A DNA stretch of 64,000 nt from positions 2,400,001 to 2,464,000 of the forward strand of contig CBDBZU010000004.1 in the NCBI GenBank assembly GCA_965213625.1. Reading direction: 5' to 3'. Made by a program: the position numbers and the translations under genes. This DNA comes from a bacterium (GTDB taxonomy: Bacteria > UBA8248). This document shows positions 6,248-11,895 of this stretch, piece by piece (within the stretch, counting starts at the first letter, position 1; every line of letters starts with the position of its first letter). A model generated the notes under the pieces. That model searched no databases, had not been told where the DNA came from, and saw nothing but the letters and a program-made list of their open reading frames with translations.

Positions 6248-7318
6248 ATGGATTTTTCCTTATTTTATATCCTGTATCGTCCCGAAGATATGACCGAGGC
6301 GCAGGTCCATGAGGATATGTTCGAAGAGAGCATTCTGGCGGACGAGTTGGGCTACTCTTGCGTCTGGTACGCAGAGCATCACTTCTCCTGCGTCGGGATG
6401 ATCCCCGACCCGCTGCTCATCTGCGCCGCCGTCGCGCAAAAGACGAAAAAAATACACGTGGGCACGGCCATTTCCATCATGTCGTTTCACGATCCCATTC
6501 GGCTGGCCGAGCAGGCCGCCATGGTGGATCTCCTGAGCGGCGGCAGGCTGGAACTGGGCATCGGGCGCGGCTCCCAGCCCAAGGAGTTCCAGGGATTCGG
6601 CGCAAGGCCCTCGGAAAGCCGAGAGCGCTTAAAAGAAGGGCTCCACATTCTCTCCCGCCTTCTCGAAGGGGAGAAGGTGACGTTCGAGGGCCGGCATCAT
6701 CAGTGCGCGGACGTGGAAATCTTCCCAAAGCCCCTGCAAAAGCCCAGGCCCCCCATCTGGCTGGCAGGAACGAGCCCCGAAACCTACACCTACGCTGGGG
6801 AAAACGGCTTCAAGGTGATGGCCTCGGCCGGCTTCACGGGCCCGGAAGTTTATAAGGAAAAGTTCGGGCTTTATGAGGGCGCTATCCGAAAATCGGGCGG
6901 CGACCCCTCCGGTATCGACAGGCCCCTGGTTCACCACATCCACGTCTGCGATGCGGAGGATGCGGAGGAATGCTTCGACCTCACGGTAGAAGGGGAGGGC
7001 GAGTACCTGCGCTACCGGGCGAAGATGAACGAGGTGGAAATGCCCGAAGATGAGGCGATGCACCTGAAGCGCAACTGGAGTTATGAACTGGACGTCGCCG
7101 AGATCGTCAGGGGCGGCGGCATCATCGCCGATCCGGGAGCCGTGGCGGAGGATATTTGCAGGCTGCGTGATGATTACGGGGTCAATCACGTCATCCTGGC
7201 GCCGTGGCGCGGGCCGGACCACGCCGCGGTGATGCGCTCGATCGAGAGTTTCGTGCGCGACGTCATGCCGCTTGTGAACGCCACCGCGCCCGTCGCTTCG
7301 AATGGAAACAACTCTTGA
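6248..7318 (+). CDS. LLM class flavin-dependent oxidoreductase (luciferase-like)
   Basis: WYAEHHF, HDPIRLAEQAAMVDLLSGGRLELGIGRG, PKPLQKPRPPIW. Confidence 0.93.
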   Translation: MDFSLFYILYRPEDMTEAQVHEDMFEESILADELGYSCVWYAEHHFSCVGMIPDPLLICAAVAQKTKKIHVGTAISIMSFHDPIRLAEQAAMVDLLSGGRLELGIGRGSQPKEFQGFGARPSESRERLKEGLHILSRLLEGEKVTFEGRHHQCADVEIFPKPLQKPRPPIWLAGTSPETYTYAGENGFKVMASAGFTGPEVYKEKFGLYEGAIRKSGGDPSGIDRPLVHHIHVCDAEDAEECFDLTVEGEGEYLRYRAKMNEVEMPEDEAMHLKRNWSYELDVAEIVRGGGIIADPGAVAEDICRLRDDYGVNHVILAPWRGPDHAAVMRSIESFVRDVMPLVNATAPVASNGNNS

Positions 7319-7366
7319 TGCCTTGATGTTTTCTTTTTTGTCTTAGATTTTGGGAGGCGCTTATTC

Positions 7367-8347
7367 GTGGGTATGAGCTTTAGTTTGCATTTGGTGCCGG
7401 ATGACATCCGGGTCGTGGCGGAGCGTTCGAAATACGCCGAGGACAACGGTTTCGAGCAGGTGTGGATTGCGGAGAGCCACCTCACCTGCCGGGATCACAA
7501 CATCGCGCTCGCTCTGGCGATCGAGAAAACCTCGCATGTGAAAATCGGCCCCGGCGTGACGAACCCGGTTCTCCATGACGACAGCGTCGCGGCGAGCGCC
7601 ATCGCCACACTCGATGAGCTATCGGGCGGCCGGGTGCTGTTCGGCATCGGCTCGGGCGACACGCCCGTCTATACACTGGGCAAGAAGATGGCCCGGCTCG
7701 CCCGGATGCGTGAATCCATCGCGGCCATACGCGCGTTTACGCGCGGCGAGACGGTGGAATACGCCGAGGGCGTGAACGTGAACATGTGGTGTGAGCGGGA
7801 TATCCCCATCTATACATCCGCCGAGGGCCCCAGGACGCTCTCCATGTCGGCCGAAGTCGCGGACGGCGTCATCGTGGGTTCGGGCGTCTACCAGGAGACG
7901 GTGGACTGGGTGATGAAGTACCTGAACGAGGGGATGGCGAATCGCGACGCCTCGCTGGGCGAGATGGACATTATTTTCGGCGCGGTCGTCTCGGTGGATA
8001 CCGACAGCGTGCGCGCGCGCGAGAAGGTGCGGGCGCGGGTTGCGAACCGGGCGCACCATAATTTCCGCATGACGCTCGACTCGGTGCCCGACCAATACAA
8101 GCCCGAAATCAAACACCTTCTGGACAATTTCGACGTGAGCAACTGGCGTGACCCAAAGCACGTGCCCCTCATCACCGACTACATCCTGGACCGTTTCACC
8201 ATCACGGGAACGCCCGAGGAGTGTGTCGACCGCATTCAGGAGATCGAGTCCTACGGGGTCAAGAGCATCATGATCGACCCCCCGAACCAGGATTTCGACG
8301 AATCTCTCAAAATGTTCACCGAAGAGGTTTTGCCCAAGTGCGTCTAA
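7367..8347 (+). CDS. LLM class oxidoreductase, Mer-like (possibly F420-dependent)
   Basis: IGPGVTNP, ATLDELSGGRVLFGIGSGD, AEGPRTL...ADG, typical of Mer-like LLMs. Confidence 0.88.
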   Translation: MGMSFSLHLVPDDIRVVAERSKYAEDNGFEQVWIAESHLTCRDHNIALALAIEKTSHVKIGPGVTNPVLHDDSVAASAIATLDELSGGRVLFGIGSGDTPVYTLGKKMARLARMRESIAAIRAFTRGETVEYAEGVNVNMWCERDIPIYTSAEGPRTLSMSAEVADGVIVGSGVYQETVDWVMKYLNEGMANRDASLGEMDIIFGAVVSVDTDSVRAREKVRARVANRAHHNFRMTLDSVPDQYKPEIKHLLDNFDVSNWRDPKHVPLITDYILDRFTITGTPEECVDRIQEIESYGVKSIMIDPPNQDFDESLKMFTEEVLPKCV

Positions 8348-8395: not shown

Positions 8396-8794
8396 ATGGC
8401 GCTGATTCCCGATTCTCATGCCGGCATTCTCGACACAAAGGCCCTCCTGTATCTGGGCACCCAGAACAAGGACGGCTCCCCCCAGGTCTCTCCCGTATGG
8501 TTCGGCACCAACGGCGACATCATCGAGGTCAATTCGGCCAAAGGCCGCCTGAAGGACCTGAATATGCGCGCGCGCCCCAAGGTGTCGATGGCCATCGTCG
8601 ACCCCGAAAACGCCTACAGGTGGGTGGGGTTACAGGGCACGGTGGTGGAGATCACCGAAAACGGGGCGGAAGAGCACATCGACGCCCTGGCGAACAAGTA
8701 TCTGGGCGTGGACAGCTATCCGAACCGACAGGCGGGGCAGGTGCGCGTCATCTACCGCATCCGGGCGGACAAGGTGTTCACGATGGGCGCATAA
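8396..8794 (+). CDS. PPOX class (split beta-barrel) oxidoreductase, probably F420-dependent
   Basis: DGSPQVSPVW, R.K..N....PKV, D..N.Y.W....G, LA.KYLG motifs. Confidence 0.88.
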   Translation: MALIPDSHAGILDTKALLYLGTQNKDGSPQVSPVWFGTNGDIIEVNSAKGRLKDLNMRARPKVSMAIVDPENAYRWVGLQGTVVEITENGAEEHIDALANKYLGVDSYPNRQAGQVRVIYRIRADKVFTMGA

Positions 8795-8839
8795 GCCGCC
8801 CTGCGCACACGATATTTGTAAGTGATGGAGACCGGAAAG

Positions 8840-9895
8840 ATGAAGTTTTCGCTATTCTATATTCCTGCATGTCAGGAGGGGGAGAGCTACAAACACGAGT
8901 TCGATCAGTTGATCGAACAATGCGAGGTGGCCGACGAACTCGGCTATGAGGCCGTGTTCCTGGCCGAGCACCACTTCTCCCGCGTGGGCATGTGCCCCGA
9001 CGCCCTGATGGTCGCGCTCGCCATCGCGCAGAGAACCAGGAAGATACGGATCGGCACCGCCATCTGCATCATGCCGTTCCATAACCCGGTGCGCCTGGCC
9101 GAACAGGCCGCCCTGGTCGACGTGCTGAGCGGCGGGCGTCTGGAGCTGGGCGTCGGGCGGGGTTCCCAGCCCAAGGAGTTTCAGGGCTTCAACATCTCGC
9201 CCAGTGAGAGCAGGGAGAAGATGCAGGAGGGCCTCGAGGTGATGACCCGCCTGCTGGAGGGGGAATGCCTCACCTTCCACGGGAAGCACTACAGCTGCAT
9301 CGACGCGGAGATTTTCCCGAAACCCATACAGAAGCCGCGCCCTCCCATCTGGCTGGCCGGCACGAGTCCCGAAACCTACGTCTTCGCCGGCAAGAGGGGG
9401 TACAACATCATGGCGTCGGGCACCTTTAAGGGACCCGAGGTGTTTCTGGAGAAGATGGCGCTCTTCCAGGAAACCGTGCGCAACCGGGGCGGCGACCCGA
9501 GTGTTTATCCCTCCCTCATGGCGCACCACGTCCACGTGTGCGACGACCCCGAGCACGCCTGGAAGCAAATCGAACCCTCGGAATCGTGGTATCTCTCCTA
9601 CCGCAGCGCGGTGAATTCCATCGAGATGCCGCTTGAGGAGAAAGAGGCGCTCAAGCGCAACTGGAGCTACGACGTCGACATCCGCCAGGTTATCGAGGGG
9701 GGCGGCGTCATCGGCCCGCCGGATAAAGTGATCGCCGATCTCAAGCGGCTCCAGGCGGAGTTCCAGGTGAATCACATCATGATCTTCGTGCTGCGCGGCA
9801 TCGCACAGGACGAGGCGATTCAGTCGATAGAGCGGTTTGCGAAAGAGGTGATGCCCGCGTTCGCCGAAGAGCGCGCGGCGAGTTCAAGCGAATAA
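8840..9895 (+). CDS. LLM class flavin-dependent oxidoreductase, close paralogue of 6248-7318
   Basis: AEHHF, LAEQAALVDVLSGGRLELGVGRGSQPKEF, shared LKRNWSY; GGAG RBS before ATG 8840. Confidence 0.93.
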   Translation: MKFSLFYIPACQEGESYKHEFDQLIEQCEVADELGYEAVFLAEHHFSRVGMCPDALMVALAIAQRTRKIRIGTAICIMPFHNPVRLAEQAALVDVLSGGRLELGVGRGSQPKEFQGFNISPSESREKMQEGLEVMTRLLEGECLTFHGKHYSCIDAEIFPKPIQKPRPPIWLAGTSPETYVFAGKRGYNIMASGTFKGPEVFLEKMALFQETVRNRGGDPSVYPSLMAHHVHVCDDPEHAWKQIEPSESWYLSYRSAVNSIEMPLEEKEALKRNWSYDVDIRQVIEGGGVIGPPDKVIADLKRLQAEFQVNHIMIFVLRGIAQDEAIQSIERFAKEVMPAFAEERAASSSE

Positions 9896-9919
9896 CATCG
9901 GTATCGAGGAGAACGGAGA

Positions 9920-10519
9920 ATGTGGATATCCCCATTAAGGCTGAATGACGCGCAAGAACCCGCACGCGGCATACTCGAGGGCATCCGGGCGAAACGGGGC
10001 GCCGTGCCCAAGCTGCTGCTCACGATGGCGCGGCGCCCTAAGGTGCTGAACGGACGCCAGACGATGAACATGGCCGTCCACGGCGGCAATTCGACGCTGG
10101 GCCAGAGGCGCGAGGAGTTGATATCCTACTATGTCGCCACCATCGGCGGTTGCTATGGCTGAACGATGAACCATGGCCAGGCTTTCCGTGCTGAAAGCGG
10201 CGACGACGTAACGCTGGCCGACGTGGCCACCGTGGTGATGGACAGGGACAATTCCCCGGTTCTCGACGATGCGGACAAGGCGATGCTCGCCTTCGCCGAA
10301 AAACTCACGTTCGACCACTACGCCATGAGCGAGGCGGACCTGGACGAGCTGCGCGAGGTGGGCTTCAGTGATGAGAACGTGCTGGACATCATAGGCTCCG
10401 TCTCGTACCGGAACATGAGCAACCGGCTGAATCTCGCGCTCGGCCTCGATGCCGTCGAACCAGAAGGCCCAGACGAGTTGATGGAGGTAGTGCGCTTCTC
10501 CCGGACTGCGCGGGCGTAA
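9920..10519 (+). CDS. AhpD/CMD-like peroxidase-related protein, probable selenoprotein (UGA at 10160-10162 read as Sec81)
   Basis: ORFs 9920-10162 and 10166-10519 share a frame. Read-through gives ELISYYVATIGGCYG-U-TMNHG, matching the AhpD ExxxxxxxxxxxCxxCxxxH motif, and a 199-aa protein of normal family size. Confidence 0.88.
10176..10201 (+). promoter_or_regulatory. Candidate bacterial SECIS hairpin
   Basis: GCC-(AG bulge)-GCTTTC-[CGTGCT]-GAAAGC-GGC; apical loop starts about 25 nt after the UGA and has a G in its first two positions. Confidence 0.6.
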
Positions 10520-10638
10520 AAACGTACATCCATTTGCCGGCCGAGCAAGTCCGGGCCGGTGATTATCAGGCAATTGATTGCCACCGTTGATTTGCGGCCC
10601 GAAGCGGCCGCGAAACAAAGCAGAAAGGAAGAGATTCC

Positions 10639-11409
10639 ATGTCAGAGCTCACCATCCGTCCGCTGAACTGCGGCACCATTCACACGGATTACTCCAATAT
10701 GGTGTATTGGACGAACTTCGGGACGAAACTCGAGATTCCCTCGTTCATCTACATGATCGAGGGGGCGAAGGACCACGACGGCAAGGACGTGAAGGTCGTG
10801 GTCGACACCAGTTTCCTGGACCCCGAGCGCGGCGGCGCCCCGTGGCCCGCGAGCCGGGAACCCGGCCAGGGCGTTCGCGAGCAGTTAGAGGGCGCGGGCT
10901 GGAAGCCCGAGGATGTGGACATCCTCATCCTCACGCACCTCCATTGGGACCATTCCCAGAACTGCGACCTGTTCACCAACGCCATCAAATACGTGTGGGC
11001 GGAGGAGCTTCAATACTCCATGTGCCCGGTCGCGCTGCAGTCGAAACCATACGACGCGCCGATCCACCCCAACACGCGCTGGCCGGTGATCGCGCAGCAG
11101 GGCATCATCTTCGAGCCGATCTGGAAGGATAATTTCGAGATCGTGCCGGGCGTCACCTACTTCCACACGCCAGGCCACACGCCGGGGCATTGCTCGGTGG
11201 CCGTCGAGACGCGCGTGGGAACGTACGTCATCGCCGCCGACGTGATCCAGATTAACGAAGGCCTCGAGCGCCGCGTTCCCGCCGGCCAGATGTCGAGCAT
11301 GCGCGACGCGATGGACTCCATCCATAAGTGCATCGAACGGGCCACGAAGGAGGAGTACATTCTGCCCGGCCATGAGATTTCGGTGCTGGAGAAGGAAGTC
11401 TACCCGTAG
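10639..11409 (+). CDS. Metallo-beta-lactamase fold hydrolase, N-acyl homoserine lactonase family
   Basis: THLHWDH, TPGHTPGH, AAD, PGHE. Confidence 0.88.
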   Translation: MSELTIRPLNCGTIHTDYSNMVYWTNFGTKLEIPSFIYMIEGAKDHDGKDVKVVVDTSFLDPERGGAPWPASREPGQGVREQLEGAGWKPEDVDILILTHLHWDHSQNCDLFTNAIKYVWAEELQYSMCPVALQSKPYDAPIHPNTRWPVIAQQGIIFEPIWKDNFEIVPGVTYFHTPGHTPGHCSVAVETRVGTYVIAADVIQINEGLERRVPAGQMSSMRDAMDSIHKCIERATKEEYILPGHEISVLEKEVYP

Positions 11410-11463
11410 GAAGGGAAAATCCGGGCGCGGCGGCTGCGCGCCTTTGTTCAGGGAGGATTCACG

Positions 11464-11841
11464 ATGGCGATGAGCGAGCGGGGCAGGGCCTTGTACGAGG
11501 AGATGAAGGCGGCGCGCGGGTTTATCTACCCGGCGTATGAACTCCTGTGCGAGGTGGACCCCGAGTTATTGGAGAACTACGAGAACCTCAAGAACCACAT
11601 CATGAAGAAACAGGGCCCCTTTCATGAGAAATACAAGGAGCTCTTCATCGCGGTGGCGAGCGCCTCGCGCAACCCCTCCGATTTAGAGAGCATTAAGAAC
11701 CACCTGAAAAAAGCGCTGCAACTCGGCGCGACCGTCGAGGAGGCGACGGAGGCCCTCGAGTGCATGCTGCCCCCCTGCGGCATGACGGCGCTCGTGGCGG
11801 GCTGCACGCAGCTCAAAGAGGTGATCGACGAGGGATATTAG
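11464..11841 (+). CDS. Carboxymuconolactone decarboxylase (CMD) family protein
   Basis: KYKEL..., HLKKALQLGATVEEATEAL. Confidence 0.85.
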   Translation: MAMSERGRALYEEMKAARGFIYPAYELLCEVDPELLENYENLKNHIMKKQGPFHEKYKELFIAVASASRNPSDLESIKNHLKKALQLGATVEEATEALECMLPPCGMTALVAGCTQLKEVIDEGY

Positions 11842-11862
11842 GGCAGGACTGGAAGCATTCGA

Positions 11863-11895
11863 CCGGGGGAGCCTGAAAACTCCCCCGGGTTTTTT
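11863..11895 (+). terminator. Rho-independent terminator of the LLM operon
   Basis: CCGGGGGAG-loop-CTCCCCCGG followed by GTTTTTT. Confidence 0.88.

Follow-up and report, generated by a model that had tools for sequence, protein, structure and literature searches.

A conserved in-frame UGA in an AhpD-like gene of a UBA8248 bacterium: a very probable 199-residue selenoprotein of the CxxU type and its candidate SECIS hairpin

The window, by which we mean the whole 64,000-nt stretch of DNA that was analysed, corresponds to positions 2400001-2464000 of a 4.13-Mb contig and carries on its forward strand, at 9920..10519, an AhpD-like gene of 199 codons plus a TAA stop (10517-10519), provided that one in-frame TGA is translated as selenocysteine (Sec, U). 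That TGA, at 10160-10162, is the sole interruption of the frame. Taken as a terminator, it closes an 80-aa ORF (9920..10162) and is followed by ACG (10163-10165) and then by the ATG of a 117-aa ORF (10166..10519), a single frame being kept throughout. A Shine-Dalgarno-like GAGGAG can be read in the sequence at 9906..9911 (+), 8 nt upstream of the first ATG; by eye, the triplets AGG, GGA and GAG are absent from the 20 nt upstream of the second (10146-10165). With TGA read as U, the product runs ...ELISYYVATIGGCYGUTMNHGQAF... around the junction, that is, C78-Y-G-U81-x3-H85. As judged from the translation and from alignments, Cys78, the first residue of the CxxU motif, is encoded by TGC at 10151..10153, U81 by the TGA itself and His85 of CxxU-x3-H by CAT at 10172..10174, and the codon for Glu66, 12 residues before Cys78, lies at 10115..10117, all on the + strand. 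A sequence-only reading that preceded this analysis had described the two ORFs as in frame and separated only by TGA-ACG, the second of them lacking a Shine-Dalgarno motif, and had placed the UGA at the second Cys of a CxxC-x3-H motif; the arrangement is borne out by the sequence, and homologues do carry Cys at column 81.

The gene lies in a five-gene cluster on the + strand. The first gene encodes a PNPOx-like (flavin/deazaflavin-binding) protein (8396..8794; PF01243, 47.9 bits) and is followed by that of a luciferase-like flavin monooxygenase (8822..9895; PF00296, 214 bits), which ends 24 nt before the selenoprotein gene; downstream come a metallo-beta-lactamase-fold hydrolase (10639..11409; PF00753, 61.6 bits) and a small CMD-family protein of 125 aa without a TGA (11464..11841; PF02627, 36.8 bits). 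A consensus scan placed a terminator-like hairpin with a T run (9 pairs, 8 of them GC), a pattern match only, at 11863..11888 (+), where it would close the cluster, and found none on the + strand between 9895 and 10639. The five genes are collinear in each of the 22 related loci compared, four of which have only about 75% identity, and the small CMD protein is 90-98% identical across the 22. As for other candidates, a crude motif scan of the window for further selenoprotein genes gave 33 matches, among which only 9920-10519 looked coding, and three other matches that were inspected proved to be ordinary stops between genes or non-coding frames. TGA occupies the same column in six of the seven AhpD-like paralogues of the genome. 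More unusual than the CxxU gene described here is a paralogue located outside the window, which carries UxxU.

The genome itself comprises 4.15 Mb in four contigs (96.6% complete, 5.2% contamination). Its possession of selA, selB, selD and tRNA-Sec had been named beforehand as a check on the selenoprotein assignment, and a lack of sel genes as a reason to abandon it; all four are present, on the same contig as the window. The products of selA (564.4 bits), selB (388.1 bits over model positions 1-580) and selD (333.5 bits) score above the curated cut-offs, selD itself having one in-frame TGA, and the tRNA with anticodon UCA, the only one of that anticodon found, was typed as tRNA-Sec by ARAGORN and confirmed by Rfam RF01852 (75.9 vs 47 bits). 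TGA terminates 33 of the 74 long open frames of the window and, in several relatives, is the terminal stop of the orthologue itself. TGA is not generally reassigned in this genome.

Orthologues were searched for in 41 genomes, namely the window genome and 40 relatives. Orthologue-level matches, 23 in number and 85-99% identical, were found in 22 of the 23 genomes of the genus, each of them containing exactly one TGA; the single genus genome without a match is 79% complete. The TGA stood at the same column in 20 of 20 loci of a first fetch (19 plus L031) and in 22 of 22 loci of a second, independent one, the latter including four loci of about 75% protein identity and much lower G+C in which it is kept; the resulting 42 of 42 loci come from two fetches that overlap in genomes, and in them the 54 nt following the TGA occur in 16 distinct versions. 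Relatives carrying TGC or TGT, which the sequence-only reading had said would speak for a mutation or a read error, were thus not encountered among these loci. For the codon comparison 23 gene sequences were used, all 23 distinct. In 17 indel-free orthologues dN/dS was 0.108 upstream and 0.148 downstream of the TGA, purifying selection thus being as strong on the second part of the gene as on the first. The second ATG is kept in the high-G+C orthologues, is a Leu codon (TTA, CTT, CTA or CTC) in the four orthologues of about 75% identity and is ATA in one other. Since a Leu codon replaces the ATG in the four distant orthologues, separate initiation cannot be the mode of expression that is conserved. 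Once relatives are compared, the in-frame junction lies far beyond chance.

Contigs from sequencing runs were considered as well. One from a DNA run is identical to the window over 9600-10800 and may be its source, another covers the stretch with 76 differences and comes from a different study, its run being labelled sponge metagenome, and a third (X18, RNA library) covers 9705-10799 with 93 differences, or about 92% identity; a second RNA-run match (X19) covers the flanks only. Since RNA libraries can contain DNA, the X18 contig is no proof of transcription. The concern that raw data might not support the TGA did not materialize, the read contigs in themselves adding little: none of the 40 differences listed first, which 107 more follow, falls on 10160-10162.

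In public protein sets the gene is represented by pieces. In a 5.8-billion-protein index the close matches are C-terminal pieces of 109-154 aa, and 19 near-full-length matches (176-243 aa, 30-42% identical) carry PF02627. An exhaustive search of 1.84 billion representatives returned 1385 proteins at E <= 0.001, the top two being a 116-aa piece that starts directly after the TGA and an 80-aa piece that ends directly before it. The split calls thus comprise an 80-aa protein with the C-terminus ...GGCYG (P0035) and 116-117-aa pieces that begin with MNHG, in keeping with the earlier expectation that annotation pipelines divide such genes. In the alignment of the query with 12 full-length homologues, taken from the 19 near-full-length matches, C78, C81 and H85 are invariant in 12 of 12. 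Among the best 150 of the 1385 representatives, Cys stands at column 81 in 104, whereas 14 are fragments with a gap there and 32, mostly diverged two-domain forms, have some other residue; in this same set of 150, column 78 is Cys in 111, column 85 is His in 127 and column 66 is Glu in 116. Glu66 is also nearly invariant in an alignment of 78 sequences, in which the invariance of Cys78 is uninformative because the members were picked for Cys there. The nearest Cys form among the best 150 of the 1385 (P0036) has 201 aa, is 47% identical and carries the motif CIGC. Homologues of the readthrough protein had been predicted to show either Cys or TGA at this column, and this is what we find, with Cys in all 12 full-length homologues and TGA in all 42 of the orthologous loci fetched.

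The joined protein matches the NCBIfam model TIGR01926 ('peroxidase-related enzyme') with 111.3 bits against a cut-off of 81.8, residues 2-177 covering model positions 2-174 of 178. Neither half alone matches any Pfam family, and the joined protein marginally misses Pfam CMD (PF02627; 21.5 bits, gathering threshold 23), which is the precomputed Pfam domain of the full-length homologues. The score against the AhpD-proper model TIGR00777 is 12.6 bits, short of its cut-off of 191.95, and the protein is therefore AhpD-like and no AhpD orthologue. An AlphaFold2 model built from the 78-sequence alignment (mean pLDDT 91.4, pTM 0.87) is all-alpha with ten helices, and its predicted helix 79-93 begins at the CxxU motif. 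The top Foldseek matches of the model are 3c1l, 6k40, 2prr, 2pfx and 2oyo (TMq 0.74-0.79, probability 1.00), and the same five entries are recovered by phmmer against solved structures, 6k40 being the best (E 5e-18), followed by 3c1l, 2pfx, 2oyo and 2prr; in all five the CxxC aligns with C78/U81. The protein is thus predicted to have the all-alpha AhpD/CMD fold, and in the model the Cxx(C/U)-x3-H motif sits at a helix N-terminus with a Glu upstream of it (C78, U81, H85, E66).

A candidate SECIS hairpin, GCC/AG/GCUUUC-CGUGCU-GAAAGC/GGC, lies inside the coding sequence at 10176..10201 (+). Its stems pair 10176-10178 with 10199-10201 and 10181-10186 with 10193-10198, an AG bulge occupies 10179-10180, and the apical loop CGUGCU (10187-10192) is separated from the UGA by 24 nt. 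Among the predicted folds of 10160-10210 it has the lowest energy, -10.7 kcal/mol. For bacterial SECIS elements, the Fig. 2 legend of the 2026 review PMC13188914 limits the loop to 3-9 nt, the upper stem to 4-16 bp, the UGA-loop spacing to 16-37 nt and the MFE to at most -7.5 kcal/mol, and asks for a G at loop position 1 or 2. In our own implementation of these limits the hairpin satisfies all four published constraints, and it resembles the bSECISearch consensus in its 6-nt loop, its 6-bp upper stem, its G at loop position 2 followed by U, its 24-nt spacing and its energy of -10.6 to -10.7 kcal/mol. The claim that a hairpin lies at bacterial SECIS distance is therefore correct, and is a weak test: a qualifying hairpin follows 492 of the 1868 TGA triplets of the window (26%), and for 198 of them (10.6%) at -10.7 kcal/mol or better. 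Since a quarter or so of all TGA triplets qualify, the hairpin alone is weak evidence. Folding energy was also considered as support and was rejected (z-scores -0.09 and +0.28), the hairpin energy being ordinary against shuffles at z = +0.28. In a 71-nt context the MFE fold is a different structure with the outer stem GGCCAG/CUGGCC, which, by eye, cannot form in the four low-G+C orthologues. Scanning 9900-10560 against Rfam, with E allowed to reach 10, gave no SECIS family and two chance matches (HIF-1 IRES and mir-324).

Comparison among orthologues is more telling. The 16 distinct orthologue sequences give 144 pair cells, of which 97.2% hold a standard pair, a share that falls to 35-58% when the partner strand is slid by 1-3 columns. 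Six of the nine pairs are invariant, one changes from G-C to G-U and one shows a compensatory change from G-C to A-U; the latter occurs in four sequences of one clade, a single event, and an adjacent pair is broken in the same four, so that covariation support for the hairpin is thin. The synonymous sites are a different matter. Considering the 94 codons with an invariant, degenerate amino acid in the 23 sequences, synonymous variation is seen at 82 of 84 codons outside 82-94 and at 6 of 10 inside (Fisher p = 0.0009). GGC86, UUC89, CGU90 and GAA92 show no change in any of the 23 sequences, CGU90 being a six-fold degenerate codon in the hairpin loop, whereas the codons of the hairpin that do vary are 87, in the bulge, 93, in the compensated pair, and 94, at the G-U wobble; the remaining variable codons, 82, 84 and 85, are upstream of the hairpin. 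As sequence evidence for the hairpin, these frozen synonymous sites are better than the match to the published constraints.

In distant relatives and in paralogues the hairpin takes the form ACGGAGA-GUY-UCUCCGU, about 11 nt after the UGA and with the loop G at about +18, and the window hairpin thus lies about 8 nt farther from the UGA than those of distant family members. At the position of the distant relatives' hairpin the window holds a 4-bp remnant, hairpin B (10173-10189), which is 100% paired across orthologues. It was rejected as the main SECIS because neither of its first two loop nucleotides is G and its spacing is 14 nt; the low-G+C orthologues lack its loop G's. It may still form as a weak alternative conformer. 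From these comparisons, it appears that in this orthologue group the SECIS has been displaced downstream by about 8 nt.

Explanations other than Sec have to be weighed against this evidence. Gene callers do give two ORFs, and TGA is one base from TGC or TGT, as one would expect of a Cys-type AhpD-like gene broken by a nonsense mutation, or of one in which sequencing or assembly had introduced a false TGA. This we regard as hardly credible, because the TGA recurs at this column in all 42 loci, which come from independent assemblies, the frame downstream of it is under purifying selection (dN/dS 0.148), and the contig from another study spans the stretch without any of the 40 listed differences (107 further) falling at 10160-10162; a systematic artefact shared by the relatives' assemblies is implausible given the differing sequencing studies. 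It could also be that the UGA is a true stop and that an 80-aa and a separately initiated 117-aa polypeptide are made, possibly as a split enzyme. An ATG does lie 3 nt past the TGA, and the high-G+C orthologues retain it; some termination at a Sec-UGA is also to be expected. However, that ATG is replaced by a Leu codon in four orthologues and by ATA in one while the TGA and the frame are kept, it is not preceded by a Shine-Dalgarno motif, and a cut between Gly80 and Thr82 would sever the catalytic motif and drop the very residue that is Cys in 104 of the best 150 relatives. Moreover, the predicted fold is a single domain whose helix 79-93 starts at the junction, and a full Sec machinery is present, which together make the production of two separate polypeptides very unlikely.

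No less improbable is that a standard amino acid, be it Cys, Trp or Gly, enters at the UGA, whether by near-cognate suppression or through a reassigned code. The residue that enters at a UGA is indeed not deducible from sequence alone, but TGA ends many genes of the window, and the orthologue itself in several relatives, the single tRNA with a UCA anticodon is identified as tRNA-Sec by both ARAGORN and Rfam, and selA, selB and selD are intact. In addition, the position is that of the redox-active second Cys, where Sec is known in this family according to table 3 of PMC1088965 and table 2 of PMC2398784. We therefore hold it to be very probable, as judged from the sequence comparisons, that 9920-10519 is one genuine Sec-encoding gene for a 199-residue AhpD-like selenoprotein, and infer that its UGA is decoded as Sec at residue 81. 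The 199-aa selenoprotein put forward in the sequence-only reading is in this way supported by the conservation of the TGA, by the sel genes and by the Sec/Cys pairing.

If the gene is a selenoprotein gene, the UGA at 10160-10162 would be read by Sec-tRNA(Sec) delivered by SelB, and SelB would be recruited by the mRNA hairpin 10176-10201 through its G-U loop 24 nt after the UGA. The Sec81 selenolate would then attack either a peroxide or some oxidised partner, for instance a peroxiredoxin; Cys78 would resolve the intermediate to give a selenenylsulfide, and a cellular dithiol would reduce this again. The protein is most likely a thiol/selenol oxidoreductase; the pairing of SelB with this hairpin, the substrate and the reductant we infer. 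Glu66, Cys78, Sec81 and His85 have the spacing of the Glu-Cys-x-x-Cys-x3-His catalytic set of AhpD. The nucleophile of Mycobacterium tuberculosis AhpD is the second motif Cys, which is activated via His and Glu, and the counterpart of Glu66 is presumably the proton-relay residue. Reduction of a peroxide or a peroxiredoxin would be the default reading. To our knowledge bacterial Sec insertion is never fully efficient, and some 80-aa truncated product is therefore likely to be made as well.

The gene cluster would allow a more specific role, in which the Sec-containing AhpD-like enzyme would be the dedicated selenol catalyst of the five genes and no general antioxidant. We consider this unlikely. 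Such a catalyst might reduce an organic hydroperoxide made by the monooxygenase, or might, by analogy with the debrominase Bmp8, act as a reductive dehalogenase on a halogenated metabolite, both of these being possibilities; no halogenase genes were seen beside the gene in the window. A relative of the locus occurs in the run labelled sponge metagenome. On this unlikely reading, the shift of the SECIS by about 8 nt and the UxxU paralogue would point to a lineage that may be unusually active in evolving its Sec usage.

Comparison with solved structures helps to place the protein. It is like DR1765 of Deinococcus radiodurans (PDB 6k40) in the phmmer match (E 5e-18), the fold (TMq 0.79) and the alignment of the CxxC with C78/U81, and differs from it in that DR1765 is a Cys form, only 28% identical and from another phylum. 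According to the part of the review PMC8945050 that deals with this protein, a DR1765 deletion mutant is H2O2-sensitive and its complementation needs both cysteines of the CxxC. With M. tuberculosis AhpD (1knc, 1gu9 and 1lw1, the last entitled 'H137F mutant') it shares the all-alpha fold of the CMD superfamily, but Foldseek E of 0.1-0.3, TMq of 0.42-0.47 and 10-11% identity make that enzyme a distant relative only; its motif we take to be CxxC-x3-H, in which a Glu precedes the first Cys by 12 residues. Bmp8 (6ohi, 6ohj) has the same fold class (TMq 0.70-0.71, Foldseek E about 2e-6) and is a Cys-dependent enzyme of the same superfamily, as the entry title 'C82A' indicates, whereas at the sequence level it is only 17-18% identical (phmmer E 0.03-0.14). 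Bmp8 acts by a thiol-based reductive dehalogenation mechanism.

AhpD-like selenoproteins with a CxxU motif have been known as a family since 2005. The list of new families in the Sargasso Sea selenoproteome includes an 'AhpD-like protein, COG2128, CXXU' with 27 sequences (PMC1088965), and in table 2 of the GOS study (PMC2398784) 'AhpD-like 1, COG2128, CxxU' stands at 299 sequences, with 902 Cys homologues, these proteins being among the most abundant selenoproteins in the sea. The statement in the sequence-only reading that Sec-containing AhpD-like proteins have been reported from marine metagenomes agrees with these entries. Reviews of 2022 and 2026 likewise have an entry 'AhpD-like protein, COG2128/TIGR01926, CxxU, 1 Sec' (PMC9312934; PMC13188914). 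The window gene is like this family in its NCBIfam match, in its CxxU with Sec at the second position and in its in-frame hairpin; it differs in nothing essential, but has a 6-nt CGUGCU loop at 24 nt, compared with a GUY/GGUC loop at about 17 nt in distant relatives, and additionally sits in a conserved five-gene cluster. Among the ten selenoprotein-richest bacteria in table 2 of the BSepDB paper (PMC13326102) are three MAGs labelled Nitrospinota, Nitrospinaceae or Nitrospinae, given there as 'UBA8248' in GTDB and as having 48-54 selenoprotein genes each. The relatives of the window genome are labelled Nitrospinota or Nitrospinaceae MAGs, and the BSepDB MAGs are comparable by that label. The gene, or its UxxU paralogue, may already be in the lists behind BSepDB and the reviews.

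The finding is thus a correct identification within a known selenoprotein family, with no new principle, and its main value is one of annotation. Since public sets hold the gene as family-less fragments of 80 aa and 116-117 aa, the redox and selenium biology of the lineage is undercounted. The locus also provides a clean example in which the freezing of synonymous sites identifies a bacterial SECIS better than folding energy does. The conserved gene cluster, in addition, offers a handle on the substrate of the large AhpD-like family.

The window gene, which encodes a 199-aa AhpD-like selenoprotein with a CxxU motif, has a paralogue of the same length (199 aa) elsewhere in the genome that carries two in-frame TGA codons instead of one (C4:604730-605326, plus strand; positions 1495-2091 of fetched locus L017). 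The two TGA codons lie three codons apart, so that the motif is read as GG-U-Y-G-U-AMNHG, i.e. UxxU. The paralogue is 46% identical to the window protein and matches TIGR01926, the NCBIfam model for peroxidase-related enzymes, above threshold (92.2 bits against a cut-off of 81.8). In a search of 41 genomes, matches with two TGA codons near the level of this paralogue were found in 22 relatives' genomes as well as in the source genome itself, and all 10 loci of the paralogue that were fetched encode UxxU and have a single hairpin downstream of it. In the parts consulted of two reviews, from 2022 (PMC9312934) and 2026 (PMC13188914), AhpD-like proteins are given solely as CxxU forms with one Sec.

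Four further paralogues on the same contig are of the CxxU type, with a TGA at the column of the window gene's UGA (C4:2711678-2712121, 1594477-1595016, 3074438-3074959 and 1819665-1820102); by eye, a stem with a GGUC tetraloop lies about 21 nt past the UGA in three of these four. The sole Cys form among seven paralogues is located at C4:3346008-3346505. Comparison of window positions 10163-10201 with loci L064-L079 revealed two UGA-to-hairpin distances within the family: the UxxU paralogue, like distant relatives, has its loop G at about +18 from the UGA, as against about +26 in the window gene's orthologue group. At the older position, about +18, a 4-bp remnant hairpin persists in the window gene.

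The window gene is the third of a same-strand five-gene cluster (window 8396-11888), preceded by genes for a PNPOx-like protein and a luciferase-like monooxygenase, followed by those for an MBL-fold hydrolase and a 125-aa CMD protein, and closed at its 3′ end by a terminator-like hairpin. The cluster is collinear in all 22 related loci, conservation being highest in the small CMD protein (90-98% identity). Immediately upstream, two further frames that by eye resemble luciferase-like monooxygenases (window ~6250-8347) follow each other head to tail and share a reading frame, the TGA between them at 7316 being an ordinary stop.

The selD gene of the genome (C4:1518852-1519814, plus strand; locus L001) likewise contains one in-frame TGA, and the selenophosphate synthetase of this organism is thus probably a selenoprotein as well.
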